DNA of 61,205 nucleotides, filler included, from Collodictyon triciliatum (Eukaryota): assembly GCA_043381765.1 (NCBI GenBank). It is 9 parts of 9 records of this genome, joined end to end, with 100 filler letters (N's around TTAATTAATTAA, not from the genome) between each part and the next. Parts side by side here need not be neighbours in the genome. Positions count along the whole stretch, not along the records: positions 54,501 to 61,205 come from JBHJMP010004299.1; 8 more parts are not named here. One strand, 5' to 3'. Shown here in pieces: positions 3,870-61,205 of the stretch. How positions within the stretch are numbered: the first letter of the stretch is position 1; the number at the start of each line of letters is the position of its first letter. The position numbers were made by a program, and so were the translations under genes. Below the pieces are notes generated by a model that had not been told where the DNA came from, searched no databases, and worked only from the letters and a program-made list of their open reading frames with translations.

Positions 3870-4656
3870 NNNNNNNNNNNNNNNNNNNNNNNNNNNNNNN
3901 NNNNNNNNNNNNNNNNNNNNNNNNNNNNNNNNNNNNNNNNNNNNNNNNNNNNNNNNNNNNNNNNNNNNNNNNNNNNNNNNNNNNNNNNNNNNNNNNNNNN
4001 NNNNNNNNNNNNNNNNNNNNNNNNNNNNNNNNNNNNNNNNNNNNNNNNNNNNNNNNNNNNNNNNNNNNNNNNNNNNNNNNNNNNNNNNNNNNNNNNNNNN
4101 NNNNNNNNNNNNNNNNNNNNNNNNNNNNNNNNNNNNNNNNNNNNNNNNNNNNNNNNNNNNNNNNNNNNNNNNNNNNNNNNNNNNNNNNNNNNNNNNNNNN
4201 NNNNNNNNNNNNNNNNNNNNNNNNNNNNNNNNNNNNNNNNNNNNNNNNNNNNNNNNNNNNNNNNNNNNNNNNNNNNNNNNNNNNNNNNNNNNNNNNNNNN
4301 NNNNNNNNNNNNNNNNNNNNNNNNNNNNNNNNNNNNNNNNNNNNNNNNNNNNNNNNNNNNNNNNNNNNNNNNNNNNNNNNNNNNNNNNNNNNNNNNNNNN
4401 NNNNNNNNNNNNNNNNNNNNNNNNNNNNNNNNNNNNNNNNNNNNNNNNNNNNNNNNNNNNNNNNNNNNNNNNNNNNNNNNNNNNNNNNNNNNNNNNNNNN
4501 NNNNNNNNNNNNNNNNNNNNNNNNNNNNNNNNNNNNNNNNNNNNNNNNNNNNNNNNNNNNNNNNNNNNNNNNNNNNNNNNNNNNNNNNNNNNNNNNNNNN
4601 NNNNNNNNNNNNNNNNNNNNNNNNNNNNNNNNNNNNNNNNNNNNNNNNNNNNNNNC

Positions 4657-42271: not shown

Positions 42272-43353
42272 GCGCGTGCCTCACGAATCATTTATGCTTT
42301 CATGTTATTTTGTCAATGCGATGAGACTTATAAAATCTGTGATGATGATAATAATGATAATGATAATAATAATAATGATAATAATAATGATAANNNNNNN
42401 NNNNNNNNNNNNNNNNNNNNNNNNNNNNNNNNNNNNNNNNNNNNNNNNNNNNNNNNNNNNNNNNNNNNNNNNNNNNNNNNNNNNNNNNNNNNNNNNNNNN
42501 NNNNNNNNNNNNNNNNNNNNNNNNNNNNNNNNNNNNNNNNNNNNNNNNNNNNNNNNNNNNNNNNNNNNNNNNNNNNNNNNNNNNNNNNNNNNNNNNNNNN
42601 NNNNNNNNNNNNNNNNNNNNNNNNNNNNNNNNNNNNNNNNNNNNNNNNNNNNNNNNNNNNNNNNNNNNNNNNNNNNNNNNNNNNNNNNNNNNNNNNNNNN
42701 NNNNNNNNNNNNNNNNNNNNNNNNNNNNNNNNNNNNNNNNNNNNNNNNNNNNNNNNNNNNNNNNNNNNNNNNNNNNNNNNNNNNNNNNNNNNNNNNNNNN
42801 NNNNNNNNNNNNNNNNNNNNNNNNNNNNNNNNNNNNNNNNNNNNNNNNNNNNNNNNNNNNNNNNNAAAAAAAACGTGTACCATCCTTAAAACAATTATCC
42901 AAAAAAGAGAAACGTACTTGTCATGGTGTCATACAAAGGAATATCCCTTACAAATATGACACCTATCACATTCGAAACCAATACGAAGAAGGAAATAAAC
43001 TGTAAAAAAANNNNNNNNNNNNNNNNNNNNNNNNNNNNNNNNNNNNNNNNNNNNNNNNNNNNNNNNNNNNNNNNNNNNNNNNNNNNNNNNNNNNNNNNNN
43101 NNNNNNNNNNNNNNNNNNNNNNNNNNNNNNNNNNNNNNNNNNNNNNNNNNNNNNNNNNNNNNNNNNNNNNNNNNNNNNNNNNNNNNNNNNNNNNNNNNNN
43201 NNNNNNNNNNNNNNNNNNNNNNNNNNNNNNNNNNNNNNNNNNNNNNNNNNNNNNNNNNNNNNNNNNNNNNNNNNNNNNNNNNNNNNNNNNNNNNNNNNNN
43301 NNNNNNNNNNNNNNNNNNNNNNNNNNNNNNNNNNNNNNNNNNNNNNNNNNNNN

Positions 43354-47198: not shown

Positions 47199-47824
47199 AC
47201 AAAAAAAATAAAATAATATGGAGCAGTCTACCTCAAGGCTTTTGATCCTGACACCTTGCCTCCTTCCGTTTAATTACTTGCTCGGTGTTTGGAGGGGTTT
47301 CTAAGTTGAGTTATATTATCATACAGATTGAGATGAGCCCGTTCAAACATGGGGAGGAGGGCGAAAGAAAGAGAAGAAAGAAAAAAAATAAATAAAGAAA
47401 GAAAAGAAAAGAAAAGAAAAGAAAAGAAAAGAAAAGAAAAGAAAAGAAAAGAAAAGAAAAATAAAAGAAGAAAAAGAAAAAAAGAAAAAAGAAATAAAGA
47501 AATAAAGAAAAAAGAAAAAAAGAAAAAAAGAAAAAAGAAAAAAGAAAAAAGAAAAAAGAAAAAAGAAAAAAGAAAAAAGAAAAAAGAAAAAAGAANNNNN
47601 NNNNNNNNNNNNNNNNNNNNNNNNNNNNNNNNNNNNNNNTTAATTAATTAANNNNNNNNNNNNNNNNNNNNNNNNNNNNNNNNNNNNNNNNNNNNTTTCC
47701 CCCCCCCCCCCCTCCCCCCCCCCCCCCCCCTTTATTCGATTCAAAGTGTTTCTGACTCGCTTTATTTCGACTCAAAGTCGTGCCCCCTCTCCACACTAAT
47801 TTTGCCAACAAACAATCCCATTAG

Positions 47825-54221
<6,397 letters not shown>

Positions 54222-55464
54222 TGCTTGACTCAAACCCAAATGCACTCTTCTTTCAGCGTGTCGTTTTTTTTGGGTTTTTTTTTTGTTTCTTTCTGATCCA
54301 CAAAGCCACCAGCATGACCTGTCTCGGGCTGGTGATGATTCTCCCCATAAAACACGACCGTTTCATCACACAACCATAAACCAAAAAAGCAATGAAAAAA
54401 NNNNNNNNNNNNNNNNNNNNNNNNNNNNNNNNNNNNNNNNNNNNTTAATTAATTAANNNNNNNNNNNNNNNNNNNNNNNNNNNNNNNNNNNNNNNNNNNN
54501 CTTTCTCTCTTTCTCTCTTTCTCTCTTTCTCTCTTTCTCTCTTTCTCTCTTTCTCTCTTTCTCTCTTTCTCTCTTTCTCTCTTTCTCTCTTTCTCTCCTC
54601 TCTTTCTCTCTTTCTCTCTCCTTCTCTCCTTCTCTCCTTCTCTCCTTCTCGCTTTGTGCCCTCCGCCTTTTCTGCTGCTTTGCGTGTGTCCTTGCAAAAC
54701 AAATCAAAGTCACACCCAGCGATCGAGCAAAAGGGCTCCGTTTCCTTCGTTACAGTTGCGATATATTTCTGGAATATACCTATAATTATTTATACAGAAG
54801 AATTTGCTCGCGACAATAGACCCTGTTATAAATATAAATATTAACTGTATATATGTACGTATCTTGATACGTTTTTGCCAACAATTTTCCTAATGATTTA
54901 TCTATTCTGTTCCATACATGATATGCATCACAACACATCACGATAGGAATAGATGTGATGATCACACAACGAGAGACAAAGTTGCGGGGAATAATAATAA
55001 TAAAAAAAAAGAGGCTCCTTTGCTGAGAAACAAGCATACTGAGAGAGAAAAAAAAAAGAAGACATATTCCCCAGAAATATAATATTATTACACTGGGGTT
55101 CTTTCCTTCTCCCAACACACCACATTCTGAATCTAAAAAAAACAAAACAGAAAAAACACGCAAGCGATGGAAAAGAGGGATCCCGAGAAGGACGAGACCG
55201 CCTACCAGGAGACCAACGCCACAGCCCTGCGCCAATGAACGCCTACTGACCATACGCAAACCGAGAAGGCCGACGCAGCCAACGCAGAGAGCGGAAAGGT
55301 CACTTGACCACATCCCTGTACAACACAGGTTATGCAGAGAGACACACCGACGATCAACACGCCAGCTGCCACCAACTCGTGAGTACAACAAACTGCTAAT
55401 AAGGCGGAGCGACCTGTTTGAAACAAAAAATCGATAATAACAATAAGAATAAGAATAAGAATAA

Positions 55465-55541
<77 letters not shown>

Positions 55542-56419
55542 GGAATACAAATACCTATCGAGCTCAAGCCATCGACCCACGGGTAGCAAGATAAGTATGA
55601 ATATAATACTCAGAATCAGTTGCTCTGGTATATTTTCTTTTTCTCTTTTCTTTTTCTCTTTTCTTTTTCTCTTTTCTTTTTCTCTTTTCTTCTCTTTTTT
55701 CCTTTTCCTTTTTCCTTTTTTCCTTTCCTTTCTCTTCGGTCTCATTCAGCCTGTAAATGGATAAACTTAATTACAAAGGTTGTGACGAACTTGGTTTTAT
55801 CGCTTTCAAGGTACAACACTTTTTATACAACGAAAGTGTGCACATATATGTAGCAGTTTATTGCACAGACAACCATCGAATTAAATCTGGGGTGACAAAA
55901 GCAGGAGGTTTGACGAATCCAAGAAGCTAACCTGAATAATATAATAGTATAATTAGTATACACAATAAGGTTAAAAAATAGTTAATAATCTCATTCTATT
56001 CCTGTAATCAATTTTTATTTCATTTTCTATTTATATAATATCATTATAATTAAAAAATGACAAACAAGCCCTTGCCTTGGCCCAGACAGAACCCACCCTA
56101 TAAACTTGCCACCAAACATGCACTTCAAAAAAAGCTTACTATCCACACTTGCGGCGGTAATCATATTGTTTGGGGCCGATGTGTTGACTTTCAGTCGCAA
56201 TGTCTACACGACCGTCCTTTCGAACTCGCCGAATCGGCTCTCAGCGTTTTGTCTCAAGTCACTTCTAAAAAAACTTTGTGTGTCTGTTTGCCACAATGTG
56301 CACATTTTGAGGGTCTCGGTAGATGCTTAATTTTAACTGAATTGATTTTGTGCAGTTTTTTTTTATTTATTTATTAAATTGACTAATTGACTCAAGTTTT
56401 ATTAAAATTGAAAACTTGG

Positions 56420-58575
56420 TAGTTTTCAAAAGGAAAAAGTAAAACAAAGACTTTCAGATAAAGAAAAGAAAAGAAAACATCTTGAGTCTGATAATCTAAA
56501 GTATTAAAACCAGACTATCGAAGCCTGNNNNNNNNNNNNNNNNNNNNNNNNNNNNNNNNNNNNNNNNNNNNNNNNNNNNNNNNNNNNNNNNNNNNNNNNN
56601 NNNNNNNNNNNNNNNNNNNNNNNNNNNNNNNNNNNNNNNNNNNNNNNNNNNNNNNNNNNNNNNNNNNNNNNNNNNNNNNNNNNNNNNNNNNNNNNNNNNN
56701 NNNNNNNNNNNNNNNNNNNNNNNNNNNNNNNNNNNNNNNNNNNNNNNNNNNNNNNNNNNNNNNNNNNNNNNNNNNNNNNNNNNNNNNNNNNNNNNNNNNN
56801 NNNNNNNNNNNNNNNNNNNNNNNNNNNNNNNNNNNNNNNNNNNNNNNNNNNNNNNNNNNNNNNNNNNNNNNNNNNNNNNNNNNNNNNNNNNNNNNNNNNN
56901 NNNNNNNNNNNNNNNNNNNNNNNNNNNNNNNNNNNNNNNNNNNNNNNNNNNNNNNNNNNNNNNNNNNNNNNNNNNNNNNNNNNNNNAAGATGAGAATATT
57001 ACGGAAGCTATTAAACAGCCAGAGTTACGAAAGTTAAAAAAGCCATCTTCAAGAAACTCGAAATACCGGAACAATGTAAAGAATGGGCTACAACGCATAT
57101 GCATCGAATCATTCCCAGAGATATTGTAAATGGTATCGAATATGTCGTCAAAGTCAGTCCAAATAAGCACACTCCATGTCTTATTTACATGAATCGCATT
57201 TTTTGAGGACATTGGAACCAAACTGTTTCAATCAATCTCTATAAGGACTATCAATACACCATGTCATATCACTCTAGATACTGCATCTTTGGTAAATCTA
57301 TTACTATCAACTGGAAAACATTATTAATGAAGAATATATCAGGATGCAAGGAGACACTATGGGATAAGTTCTTTGAAATGAAGAGGGTCTGTCATCAAAG
57401 AAGCTACAATTTTAAATACATGATACAATCAGACGGCTTGGTGGTGTCATTGTTGTTTGAAAATAAAAGGTATTTCAAATTCAAAATCCAAATACAAACA
57501 AAAAAAACCCCAAGAACATGTTTCTATATATGAACTTTCCGAAGAGCTGTTATCTTTATTAGACAGAAAAAAAAATTGAGTGGACGCAGGCAAGTTTAAT
57601 TTGGTTTACATGGTGGATGAGACAGGTAAGAAATTACGTTACACGGCACACCAAAAAAGAAGACATGATAGCAAATCTCTTAAAAATCACAAAATACTCT
57701 TGCGCAAGAAAAAAGAAAAGTACAATTATTCAGGGATATGCATGGCAACAGATTTACAAAGTGCTATTTCTTTTGTTCCAGGACTTTTTAAGAGAATCAG
57801 CGGTTTGAGACACCGAGAGTATCTTTAATCGATTTAGAGACATACCTGAGTAAACATAATTCATGCACGGTCGATTATGAATAATTTCGAAAATATGTAT
57901 CTATGAAATCAAGATGCCAGATATAATTTTCCAGATTTTATGAACGAGTAACTTTTCGAAAGATGAGATGGAGACAGTATGTTATTACAAAAAGAAGTGA
58001 ACAGTTGTTTATAGACAGAATCGAAAAGGCATTTGGCAAGGATGTTGTACTGGTGTATGGAGACTGGAGCAGAAAATATCCGATGAAGCATTTTATGCTA
58101 ACAATCGGAAGAGGATTACGAAAAATACTATCCAAACGTCTTGAAACAGTTAATGTAGATGAATTCAGAACCTCCAAGATGTGTTGCAACTGCGAATAAG
58201 AACTGGAATATCTGAAACTGAAAGGAAAAACAAAAAAAGATGTATAGATGTCTCACATGTAAAGAATGTAATCACTTAGAAAGCAAACAAAGTGTATTCT
58301 TGACAAGGAACTTTAACAGCGCTAATAATATACTCAATAGCGTTCTTTTAATCCTTCAAAAAAAAATATGCGTACACCTCTCTTTAAAAAACGGGCTGTT
58401 GGGTCTTTCCTGGCAGCCTTCGTCACTACACGACCCTCTGTGAAAAAAGTAGTGAAACCTTGGATGCTAGCGCACCAAGTTTGCCAATCGAATGAACAGA
58501 TTGGTATTCTCCTTCTAGTTAAAAATATTTATTAGCCCATACGTTATTTTTTCATCACATATTCGGTTCTGCGTA
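56420..58575 (+). mobile_element. Decayed Fanzor1 element (eukaryotic TnpB-like RNA-guided RuvC nuclease) with an internal N gap; boundaries approximate
   Basis: Across frameshifts the translation gives SIKTRLSK; IEYVVKVSPNK...LIYMN..EDIGTKLFQSISIRT..PCHITLDTASL; FKYMIQSDGLVVSLLF; RuvC-I VDAGKFNLVYMVD; FRKMRWRQY; VLVYGDWS; RuvC-II VDEFRTSKMCCNC; CxxC; RuvC-III TRNFNSANNI. Several stops and indels are present. Confidence 0.88.
58390..58575 (+). ncRNA. Putative Fanzor omegaRNA scaffold
   Basis: Four consecutive hairpins immediately 3' of RuvC-III: 58394-58418, 58423-58455, 58459-58479 and 58482-58506. The position matches TnpB/Fanzor omegaRNAs. Confidence 0.6.
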
Positions 58576-58719
58576 AACTGTGAGGACTTTTTTTTTGCAG
58601 GGTTTGTGTGCGGGGAGGTTATACGGAGCGAACGCTCATCCGACGGTGCGCGGCATATGCGGCTCTCGATCGGCTGTGTCTTGCTCTAAGTTCTTTCGAT
58701 ACAAAATCCCACCGTGGAC

Positions 58720-58929
58720 ATTGTGCAAAAAAACCACACCATGAGCGGTGGAGAGAAGCTTCTAAGCATCACAGACATCCCGCAAGTCTCTCCAAACTAC
58801 CAACAGGGAGGCATCGCAAAAACCCAGTCCACAGGCCAAACCGCATAATCCAATTCCTGACCATCAACTACTTCTCTACCACTCACAGCCAAAACCTCCG
58901 CCATCTCGCACAAATTGAAATAATTGTAA

Positions 58930-58969
<40 letters not shown>

Positions 58970-58970
58970 A
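58720..58970 (+). mobile_element. Internally deleted copy of the same LINE 3' end as 34071..34870, with a (TAAA)n tail
   Basis: ACCCAGTCCACAGGCCAAACCGCATAATCCAATTCCTGACCATCAACTACTTCTCTACCAC aligns with ACCCAGGCTACAGGCCAAACCGCAGGATGCAATTCCTGATTACCGACTGCTTCTCCACCAC (~34701). KKPHHERW resembles KKSKHQRW. Confidence 0.75.
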
Positions 58971-59224
58971 AGAAGAGGAAGGGGAGGACCGCGTTGAACT
59001 ATACTTAACTTTATCACGGACTTAACTGAGGTAGTGTAACGAAGCCAGGAAGACACTCGGCCTCCACAACAGACACGTCATGTCTTATTCGTCCTGGAAG
59101 AGAGACACGAAACACTGTTTGCAGCAGGGCGAGGCGAGAAGTGGGGCGGACCAGAATGGCACAGAGAAGCAGAGGAAAGCCGGTGCGCACAAGAAGGCAG
59201 AGGGGAAGGCCACGGATGCGCCAG

Positions 59225-59779
59225 TCAAAGGGACGTCTCTGGAGGGGAAAAGTCGTTTGGGGAAGAGTCGACCCAGTGGGACTGGCGAAGGGCGTGGGCG
59301 CGCTGCTGGAAAGGAAGGCGGGCCGCGTCGGGCATTTGTTTCCAGATTTTTCCGAGTGTGCGGCTGGCTTCGTTGTTGTTGCTGAAGGGGTCTGCATGCC
59401 GCACACGGGGCCGCCATTCCATGCAGAAGAGGAGGAACGCATTCAGCGGACGCCCGCGCCGCCCTTTGCTTCGGTCTTTTGCTTCGTCCCTGGATTTGTC
59501 GGCAGACTTTTCCGAGGACTTGTCGGCGGATCTGTCGGCCGGAGTAGTCTCTGCAGGGAGCGGCGCACGGGTGCGGGGTTCTGCGTGGTCGGCCAGAAAG
59601 AAGAGTAGCGGGGGAAGAGACAAGTCGCCGTGGATGCTCTGCTGTGCGTGGAGAGAAATCCCCGAGGGTCGTGCGCCCCACTCCACGCGCGGCTCCATCG
59701 GCTCGGGTGTGGCTGAGGCTGAGACTGAGGTTGAGGCTGCTGTGTTTGAGGGGTGTCCTGTGGGTTGCTGTGTCGTCAT
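59225..59779 (-). CDS. SOX/MATA-type HMG-box transcription factor, intronless, GC-rich
   Basis: RPLNAFLLFCMEWRPRVRHADPFSNNNEASRTLGKIWKQMPDAARLPFQQRAHALRQSH matches the sequence-specific HMG-box consensus. Confidence 0.85.
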   Translation of the reverse strand: MTTQQPTGHPSNTAASTSVSASATPEPMEPRVEWGARPSGISLHAQQSIHGDLSLPPLLFFLADHAEPRTRAPLPAETTPADRSADKSSEKSADKSRDEAKDRSKGRRGRPLNAFLLFCMEWRPRVRHADPFSNNNEASRTLGKIWKQMPDAARLPFQQRAHALRQSHWVDSSPNDFSPPETSL

Positions 59780-61205
59780 GGTGCGCTGGCACGGATTCTT
59801 CCGTCTCGCTGGGTTGGCGGCTCTCTGCCTCGAGGATTAATCGTTAGCGGAGAAATCCTTGCTTGGCGAGCGGCACGAGTCGCTGATTCAGATAGCAGAG
59901 ATTGACTCAAAAGAAAGAATCAGAAGAGTTACTCAACAGATTGAATCAACAGATTGATTGAAGAGAGTGAATCGTAGCAACGCTCTCTTTCAGAGTCTTT
60001 TCCTTGCCACGCGATCCGCCAAGCACCGGCGGTGTGTTGGGTGTGGGTGAGTCATGCCTGTTTCACTCTCGGATTAGCGCCGGTCTCCTGCAGGCCAGAC
60101 GAGATGGAAAACAGGCGAAATAATCGCCCCGGCGACTAATCCCCGTGAGTGCACTTGTACGAGACTTTTCCCAGTCCCAAGGGTGCTTCTTTGGTTCGGC
60201 CGGTATTATTGTGGTGTTGAACACATTGCTTTGCTAGAAGGATGAGCGAATTTCTCGTTGCCGATTTAAATACCTGGCAAACTCACGCTTTTTTTTCTTT
60301 TCGGGTTCCTTGGACTCTAACCTTTTCTTTATTTGCACACATGCTCCAATTTCTCGGAATTTTCGATGCAGATTAGGAAGTATCAGACGCGAGCGGATTG
60401 CGCCTATTCGGGAATCTAGAATCAAAAATGGTCTTTTTCTTATCCCCTAATCCGCACTTACGCTCTTTTACCCATGACTGGAATTTATGAAAATTAAGTT
60501 AATTTTCCACATATGTTGATCCTTAAGTGGATATATACAATGAAAATACGTTCATTCAGACAGAAATCCACACGAGATAGCACATTTAAACAAACAGCAG
60601 CATATCCAGTACTCGCCATAGTATCCCCAGCCAGGGGACGAAACCACACACAACACGGCAATAGTTCAGCGAATATAACGCATTTGGCAATAATCCGTTG
60701 AAACATCGCATATTTCCGGCGAAAAATTGAAACTGTGCACGAGCTGTGACGTCAAAGATTTCTGCAATAATTCTGAAAAGACAAATCAGGGCAGAATCCG
60801 CTCCAATCCACTTTAGGTATCATTAATTCCTATTATGGCTAATTCAAAGACAATTCTGGAAAAGGGCGATTCGAGCCCCAGCCGTAATGACGCATATCTC
60901 AAAACGCCCTGGCATCGCGGACAACCACCTCACCAAGTTTCTAACAGAATCATCTGGAGGAGCCAGTCACTGACTCCAATTCTTGTCTCTTGTTCGATCT
61001 CTTTCTGCTTATTGCAATTAAAAAGGAGATTCATCACAAACTAACAGATGGTCCAAGCATACGCCATTTTAAATTAACATACGTTGGATGTTTGGAGAAT
61101 CTCGGTCACCTTTCCCCATCACAACCCCTGTTTTTTTTTTTTTTTTTTTTTTATTTTTTTTTTTTTTGTCAATTGCGGGGAAATTTTTGTAAATTAGTCA
61201 TCGAA

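Follow-up and report, generated by a model that had tools for sequence, protein, structure and literature searches.

A probable decayed Fanzor1 element in the nuclear genome of Collodictyon triciliatum

A 61,205-nt stretch of DNA from the eukaryote Collodictyon triciliatum (GenBank assembly GCA_043381765.1; nine parts joined end to end, hereafter the window) was analysed for a suspected gene of the RNA-guided nuclease Fanzor1, which lies in the part derived from JBHJMP010004299.1. The region from ~56425 to 58522 on the + strand is best explained as a decayed Fanzor1 element of ~2.1 kb in a eukaryotic nuclear genome, a reading to which we assign a probability of about 0.9.

Results

Relationship of the locus to Fanzor1

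A family hidden Markov model (HMM) of 619 positions was built from 59 full-length relatives (580-720 aa) among the 150 matches listed, and was searched against all six-frame, stop-to-stop pieces of 55900-58800. Seven pieces of the + strand, between 57015 and 58440, were tiled colinearly by profile positions 164-586 of 619. Six of these scored between E 3e-42 and 3e-10, and the seventh 2e-3. When the whole window was scanned in six frames, nothing else scored better than E 0.018. The marginal match at that value (1148-1360, + strand, profile positions 540-595) falls in an alternative frame of an open reading frame (ORF) for a WWE/Macro-domain protein and is probably due to chance.

Comparison with the PDB was made with the segment 57792-58244, in which TAA was read as X. 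Fanzor1 proteins were matched from Parasitella parasitica (9CF0, E 3.6e-13), Spizellomyces punctatus (SpuFz1, 8GKH, E 3e-8) and Guillardia theta (9CER, E 8e-4). The fourth of the four matches listed was the giant-virus TnpB-like protein L79 (9b0l) at E 1.4, which we take to be a mimivirus Fanzor2. A second profile, from 22 relatives, aligned full-length with SpuFz1 (positions 4-602 of 611, E 1e-83). Searched against the PDB, this profile gave three matches at E 0.01 or better, all of them Fanzor1, and no Fanzor2 or TnpB chain at that threshold. When 1.84 billion representatives were searched exhaustively with HMMER, 1783 relatives had E values of 1e-3 or better; those matching best were P0002 (209 aa, 56% identical) and P0003 (634 aa, 50%).

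Within the window copy, the RuvC-II glutamate stands six residues upstream of the first CxxC of a zinc finger (D-E-FRTSKM-CCNC, 58158-58193). This alternative-E position is described as the typical Fanzor arrangement in PMC10711439. Judged by sequence comparison, that is by the colinear HMM tiling, the Fanzor1-only PDB matches, the full-length match to SpuFz1 and the Glu-CxxC spacing, the locus is a Fanzor1 gene by descent. In a FastTree phylogeny of 120 rows (sequences of at least 450 aa, six short close matches and 19 ORFs from the metagenome loci described below, without named references), only the pairing of the window copy with P0002 was supported (98), and support for the next clade was 77.

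An earlier note on this DNA had proposed a Fanzor1 remnant from its motifs and had suggested alignment to Fanzor profiles, with a best match to an unrelated family as the contrary outcome. Translation placed all the motifs it quoted, and a TAA at 58197-58199, where it had put them on the + strand. The proposed identity was borne out by the PDB Fanzor1 matches and the end-to-end SpuFz1 alignment; the pieces do align colinearly, at E 3e-42 to 2e-3.

Layout and decay of the reading frame

The motifs all lie within 56987-58443 (+), spread over two alternating frames. The WED/REC part (57015-57530) consists of three pieces, 57015-57203 in frame 0, 57193-57324 in frame 1 and 57207-57530 in frame 0, which the HMM matched at E 1e-10, 3e-10 and 6e-13 to profile positions 164-225, 225-263 and 258-328, respectively. 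Translated motifs in this part are YVVKVSP (57141-57161), IYMN (57183-57194), KLFQ (57220-57231), HITLDT (57265-57282) and IQSDG (57423-57437), all on the + strand, as are those that follow. The RuvC-I piece (57580-57720; E 3e-13, profile 357-402) comes just after an in-frame TGA (57577-57579) and opens with VDAGK (57580-57594; Asp codon 57583-57585) at the consensus vDPGk. The REC2/RuvC-II piece (57783-58196, frame 0) carries YGDW (58056-58067), DEFRTSK (58158-58178; Glu codon 58161-58163) and CCNC (58182-58193), the first CxxC; its section 57927-58196 gave the E value of 3e-42. Frame 1 then holds, at 58222-58443, the second zinc-finger half (CLTC/CKEC, 58249-58269) and RuvC-III (RNFNSANNI, 58306-58332; Asn codon 58309-58311), and ends in TGA at 58441-58443. 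The RuvC-III piece matched profile positions 540-586 at E 6e-11, with the consensus inRDvNaalNi. A C4 zinc finger is present between RuvC-II and RuvC-III, its halves split by the TAA at 58197 and a frame change.

Nothing visible corresponds to profile positions 1-163, and a run of 459 N's (56528-56986) covers ~150 N-terminal (WED/REC) codons. The run probably stands for real sequence, because 459 nt fits the length missing from the profile. On its upstream side, 56425-56527 (+) may hold a tentative N-terminal start, lysine-rich and similar to a nuclear localization signal. The resemblance to the N-termini of the proteins from two metagenome loci, L005 and L006 (KRKK...KKRK...SIKT), is weak and non-significant (tblastn E ~0.4 against a 278-nt database), and the stretch has TAA stops at 56440 and 56497. 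The GC content is 0.34 in the gene body, 0.45-0.50 in the flanks and 0.45 in the 3' RNA region described below. No second copy was found in the window by blastn of 55901-58600 against its whole length.

The reading frame of the window copy is broken. Five frame changes occur, near 57199 and within 57285-57315, 57460-57503, 57720-57783 and 58197-58225, together with five in-frame stops, TGA at 57577 and TAA at 57789, 57882, 57924 and 58197. RuvC-I reads DAG (57583-57591) where relatives have DPG, and RuvC-III reads RN (58306-58311) where relatives have RD. Residues D372, E530 and D581 were invariant in 22 of 22 relatives; the window copy has D, E and N. Neither an uninterrupted frame nor a D-E-D triad with DPG and RD is present in it. 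Because of the five frame changes, the five stops and the changes from DPG to DAG and from RD to RN, the copy cannot act as an RNA-guided nuclease: it is dead and incapable of guided cleavage.

One stretch within the gene, 57720-57781 (+), is 62 nt long, runs from GT to AG and contains a pyrimidine tract. The giant-virus relatives (P0003) are without this segment, and P0002 reads through a 22-residue counterpart of little similarity. No spliced joint for 57720-57781 was found among the 15 of 17 joints listed from public-run contigs. The stretch is a candidate short intron; alternatively, it may combine a variable coding insert with a deletion of one base.

Sister copies in public sequencing runs

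Contigs from public runs were placed on 56987-59400 at 80% identity or more. Nine of the ten runs listed contain small shares of the stretch; the contig sources include two organism-labelled runs (X1 and X4) and a freshwater metagenome. At 80-100% identity, 263 contigs were placed from X1, one from X2, 145 from X3 and 271 from X4. Those from X1 fell into identity classes of 99% or more (14 contigs), 95-99% (51), 90-95% (106) and below 90% (92), and single positions were covered by 8-19 distinct contigs in X1 and X4. Coverage was continuous over the gene, dropped about ten-fold at 58445-58525 and ended at 58493-58517, with none at 58526-58768, a gap that is not counted as evidence. The flank that holds an HMG-box gene (58994-59400) was covered by one contig, with four differences, in X1 and again in X4. 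It follows that the labelled organisms are the same species or a close relative, with the Fanzor element repeated in them. A multi-copy Fanzor1 family, with diverged copies, is present in this organism.

Of the best-supported differences between the window copy and the sister contigs, 36 of 40 were examined. Eight were silent, and at least 13 replace the window residue by one conserved in relatives, such as L to P at 58099, V to A at 58054, C to F at 57391 and stop to E at 57789. At this last position all sister contigs have G, which gives the sense codon GAA. As the sister contigs hold the relatives' conserved residues, the window copy carries private damage, and the comparison indicates that it is decayed from a conserved ancestor. 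One-letter indels in sister contigs, at 57199 and 57314, coincide with two of the frame-change sites.

A separate short repeat at 58769-58930 had a high summed depth in three runs (X1, X4 and X3); both of its sides were uncovered.

Related elements on giant-virus contigs

The closest full-length relatives, ~50% identical to the window copy, were all found on long, gene-dense contigs of giant-virus metagenome-assembled genomes (MAGs; GVMAG in their names). One example, L003/L036, lies on a contig of 254,533 bases. Genes flanking the relatives encode an mRNA capping enzyme, the ribonucleotide reductase small subunit, Hsp70, DnaJ and a 2-Cys adaptor domain. A scan of a viral collection, seeded with the clade nearest in the tree, gave 315 candidate loci, of which the best 80 were kept. 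No sampled locus was more than ~50% identical to the window copy. The window family belongs to a clade that uncultured giant viruses carry in great numbers.

At nine of 35 metagenome loci, a transposase of 343-346 aa with DDE_3 and helix-turn-helix domains (IS630/Tc1-type) lies divergently, just upstream of the Fanzor gene. A terminal inverted repeat (TIR) of 32 nt was found at both ends of L001, L003, L004, L005, L006 and L014. The two-gene unit measures 3.3 kb (L001, L003, L005 and L006), and its right end lies ~47 nt past the stop codon. On a 39.8-kb contig, L004:379-2654 is a 2.28-kb element with both 32-nt TIRs and the Fanzor1 gene only, without a transposase. Alongside the two-gene form of 3.3 kb, it represents a naturally occurring non-autonomous one. 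The same arrangement is described for the mariner-type Fanzor1 elements PGv-1, PUl-1 and PUl-4 by Bao and Jurka 2013 (PMC3627910).

A second DDE_3 transposase, 35% identical to the Fanzor-linked one, lies 4.6 kb from it at L005:1028-2035.

A structured RNA at the 3' end

Ten relatives have a common fold in their final 170 nt. This five-helix RNA, ~170 nt long, overlaps the terminal part of the Fanzor1 ORF and stops in the right terminal repeat. With the covariance model made from the relatives, all 34 of the 34 loci searched gave a sense-strand match at the 3' end of the Fanzor ORF, at E 1e-10 or better. Pairing was seen in 90% of the cells of their alignment, compared with 41-50% for slid partners, although the alignment was fitted to the model and so favours the structure. 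Compensatory change was seen in 27 of 33 pairs, and none of 500 shuffles reached the observed values. The RNA loci were L001, L003-L009, L012, L014-L016, L019, L020, L038, L040, L042-L045 and L053-L132. The five-helix RNA is probably the omega-RNA scaffold of the giant-virus Fanzor1 clade. PMC10530073 locates Fanzor guide RNAs in the interval from the ORF end to the right repeat.

In the window, the relatives' model (R1), run over the full length with filters off, gave its best match at 58375-58522 (+), where the full model aligned with 16.4 bits (E 0.0044); the next-best match had 7.6 bits. The minimum free energy fold of 58375-58522 has four hairpins (z -2.86), and an equally good fold was reached by one of 200 shuffles. 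At two paired positions (58451 and 58483), sister copies have substitutions that leave the pair intact. The segment, which overlaps the end of the reading frame, stops where sister-contig coverage stops (58493-58517). No Rfam family matched the window at gathering thresholds. On balance, the modelled fold and match favour 58375-58522 as a decayed omega-RNA (fRNA) scaffold, which would put the right end of the element near 58517-58522.

Transposase and element ends

When two of the relatives' transposases were used as tblastn queries, no DDE_3 transposase was found in the whole window (best E 2.6); the same two queries matched nine of 35 relative loci strongly. Two TIR candidates, I4 and I14 (70-74%, 23-30 nt), had right arms near the right boundary of the family and were rejected, as gapped alignment and shuffles gave no signal. 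A direct repeat, D15 (13 nt, at 56204 and 58426), was at chance level. The copy may be a form without transposase, as L004 is, whose ends have decayed; otherwise it is truncated. We infer that it is non-autonomous and that its right end lies near the limit of the putative scaffold.

The earlier note had also described the copy as dead, expected a Fanzor family in this lineage and seen no transposase. The stops, the frame changes and the D-to-N change in RuvC-III agree with the first of these statements; the 263, 271 and 145 contigs of X1, X4 and X3 at 80-100% identity support the second; and the search with the relatives' DDE_3 proteins upholds the third.

Genomic surroundings

Three host genes with long open frames were recognised: a polycystin-type cation channel (47800-50385, +), a WWE and Macro domain protein (3-2537, +) and, in the near flank of the locus, an HMG-box protein (59228-59836, -). 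Given these genes, the window is taken as eukaryotic nuclear DNA. The locus is also flanked by a long AAT/ATT-type trinucleotide run (55400-55600) and a (TAAA)n microsatellite (58927-58965). Between 6718 and 54500, blocks of 44 N's occur in pairs 12 bases apart, every ~6.81 kb, eight pairs in all; longer N runs lie at 3870-4655, 42394-42865 and 43011-43353. The N blocks look like masking rather than assembly gaps.

Discussion

We propose that ~56425-58522 would be an element in which a Fanzor1 gene, for a TnpB-like, RNA-guided RuvC nuclease that has a C4 zinc finger and WED/REC lobes, precedes what is left of a 3' guide-RNA scaffold; the scaffold would end at the right end of the element. In an intact relative, as the literature on Fanzor1 has established, the 3' part of the transcript would fold into the scaffold, and the sequence just beyond the right end would serve as guide. 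The protein-RNA complex would then cut matching DNA beside a short adjacent motif. By analogy with TnpB, guided cleavage would help the element persist. In the simplest view, the window copy would be a transposase-less member of its family, non-autonomous or truncated, that has been decaying since its insertion.

Several observations weigh against this proposal. Single pieces fared poorly by themselves: one of eight gave a Pfam match, Cas12f1-like_TNB at E 0.036, below the cut-off, the RuvC-I piece alone had no match in the PDB, and a word-index protein search found nothing with a 90-aa piece and P0002 only with the 151-aa read-through. The Pfam misses are put down to the shortness of the pieces, which the family HMM overcame. 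As to the ends, the relatives' TIR was absent from the window at up to eight mismatches, and the best inverted match between 55700-56527 and 58380-58640 scored 20, equal to the shuffle mean of 20. Inverted repeats further upstream, to 40 kb, scored 24 against a shuffle maximum of 25. No TIR, target site duplication or left end was found around the window copy. The RNA match at 58375-58522 is modest (16.4 bits, with rough calibration) and did not reach E 0.01 in a default-filter search of 422 kb. With regard to decay, assembly errors at homopolymers may underlie frame changes, the frame-restoring states at 57199 and 57314 make up a minority of the sister-contig depth, and the D-to-N change and the frame changes may be private or family-wide.

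The question of homopolymer errors leads to an alternative in which the locus is a live Fanzor1 gene, its apparent breaks being short introns, sequencing errors and TAA codons recoded as a residue. Three of the five frame changes do lie at A or T runs (57193-57206, 57460-57503 and 58215-58238), another coincides with the GT..AG stretch at 57720-57781, four of the five in-frame stops are TAA, and PMC10530073 reports that eukaryotic Fanzor genes gain introns. Recoding is contradicted on several counts. Of six long host ORFs examined, two that contain Pfam domains (polycystin-like and WWE/Macro) end in TAA, which is therefore a genuine stop here; host ORFs of 840-860 codons are open under the standard code. 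Moreover, the in-frame TAAs align to differing residues in relatives (K, M/K, L and E) rather than to a single one, and the stop at 57577 is TGA. The listed joints contain none that would splice out 57720-57781. The catalytic D replaced by N, the DAG at RuvC-I and the at least 13 private changes at conserved residues also speak against a live gene, which we regard as highly improbable.

Two further alternatives concern the origin of the locus. It could be an endogenous viral element, part of a giant-virus genome that integrated with a Fanzor1 element inside it; this would suit the giant-virus MAG contigs that hold all the closest full-length relatives, and the AT-rich island (GC 0.34) within flanks of 0.45-0.50. 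It is hard to square with an element present in 8-19 contigs per position (X1 and X4) next to a single-contig flank (58994-59400), with the HMG-box gene in that near flank, with identity of only ~50% to any sampled viral copy, and with a partial scan in which none of 29 window ORFs had a giant-virus hallmark domain. We consider such an integration improbable. The second alternative is that the remnant stems from another TnpB-like lineage (Fanzor2/IS607-type, or a contaminant bacterial TnpB) or reflects chance motifs. The sub-threshold Cas12f1-like_TNB hit was the only Pfam indication, and the C-terminal piece alone matched only a Cas12f1 chain in the PDB (E 0.81), as might be expected under this alternative. 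The segment 57792-58244, in contrast, matches Fanzor1 structures, with 9b0l only at E 1.4, and the three family-profile matches at E 0.01 or better are all Fanzor1. The glutamate spacing is of the Fanzor type presented in PMC10711439, the tiling is colinear with E values down to 3e-42, and the flanking genes are eukaryotic. We give this alternative next to no credence, and retain the decayed Fanzor1 element in a nuclear genome.

A bolder extension can be formulated, which we hold to be possible but rather unlikely. The window copy might be the fossil of a living, copy-rich, transposase-less Fanzor1 family of a freshwater eukaryote, acquired from or shared with giant viruses, which has gained a short intron, retains intact members (nuclease plus five-helix guide RNA), and spreads by trans-mobilisation or RNA-guided homing. 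If true, intact members would provide a compact programmable nuclease from a new natural source, as well as a case in which to test how Fanzor persists without a transposase. By themselves, dead copies of Fanzor1 carry little weight, as such debris is to be expected in eukaryotic genomes. Elements of this kind, mariner-associated and of the giant-virus/protist clade, have already been described, and the window copy is a further member; Fanzor1 genes and remnants in protists and giant viruses are well catalogued (PMC3627910, PMC10530073 and PMC10711439). The present data indicate that the organism hosts a multi-copy Fanzor1 family and suggest that the conserved 3' scaffold of the clade has left a trace even in a decayed copy, whose right end it would mark. 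An intact copy in the genome, if there is one, would be a candidate compact RNA-guided nuclease and a data point on virus-host exchange.

Comparison with known systems places the window copy among Fanzor1 elements. With Fanzor2 and IS607-type TnpB (9B0L) it shares the superfamily, with its split RuvC and zinc ribbon; the match to that structure is non-significant (E 1.4), and none came with the profile at E 0.01 or better. It differs from the Mariner/Tc1-type elements (PGv-1, PUl-1 and PUl-4; L001-L006) in that it has no DDE_3 transposase, TIR or recognisable TA duplication, and in being a multi-copy element among host genes in a eukaryotic chromosome. It resembles them in its Fanzor1 clade, with ~50% identity, in its compact layout, with a right end a few tens of bases past the stop, and in a homologous 3' structured RNA, which in the window is predicted. 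Fanzor-only forms exist among those elements too, namely L004 and PUl-4 (PMC3627910). Unlike the solved Fanzor1 proteins of Spizellomyces (8GKH), Parasitella (9CF0) and Guillardia (9CER), the window copy is broken and has DAG and RN; it is distant from them yet can be aligned by HMMER, and its closest database protein is 56% identical. In common with these proteins, it has the order WED/REC, RuvC-I, REC2, RuvC-II, C4 finger and RuvC-III, a glutamate six residues before the zinc finger and, as predicted for the window, a guide-RNA scaffold at the 3' end.

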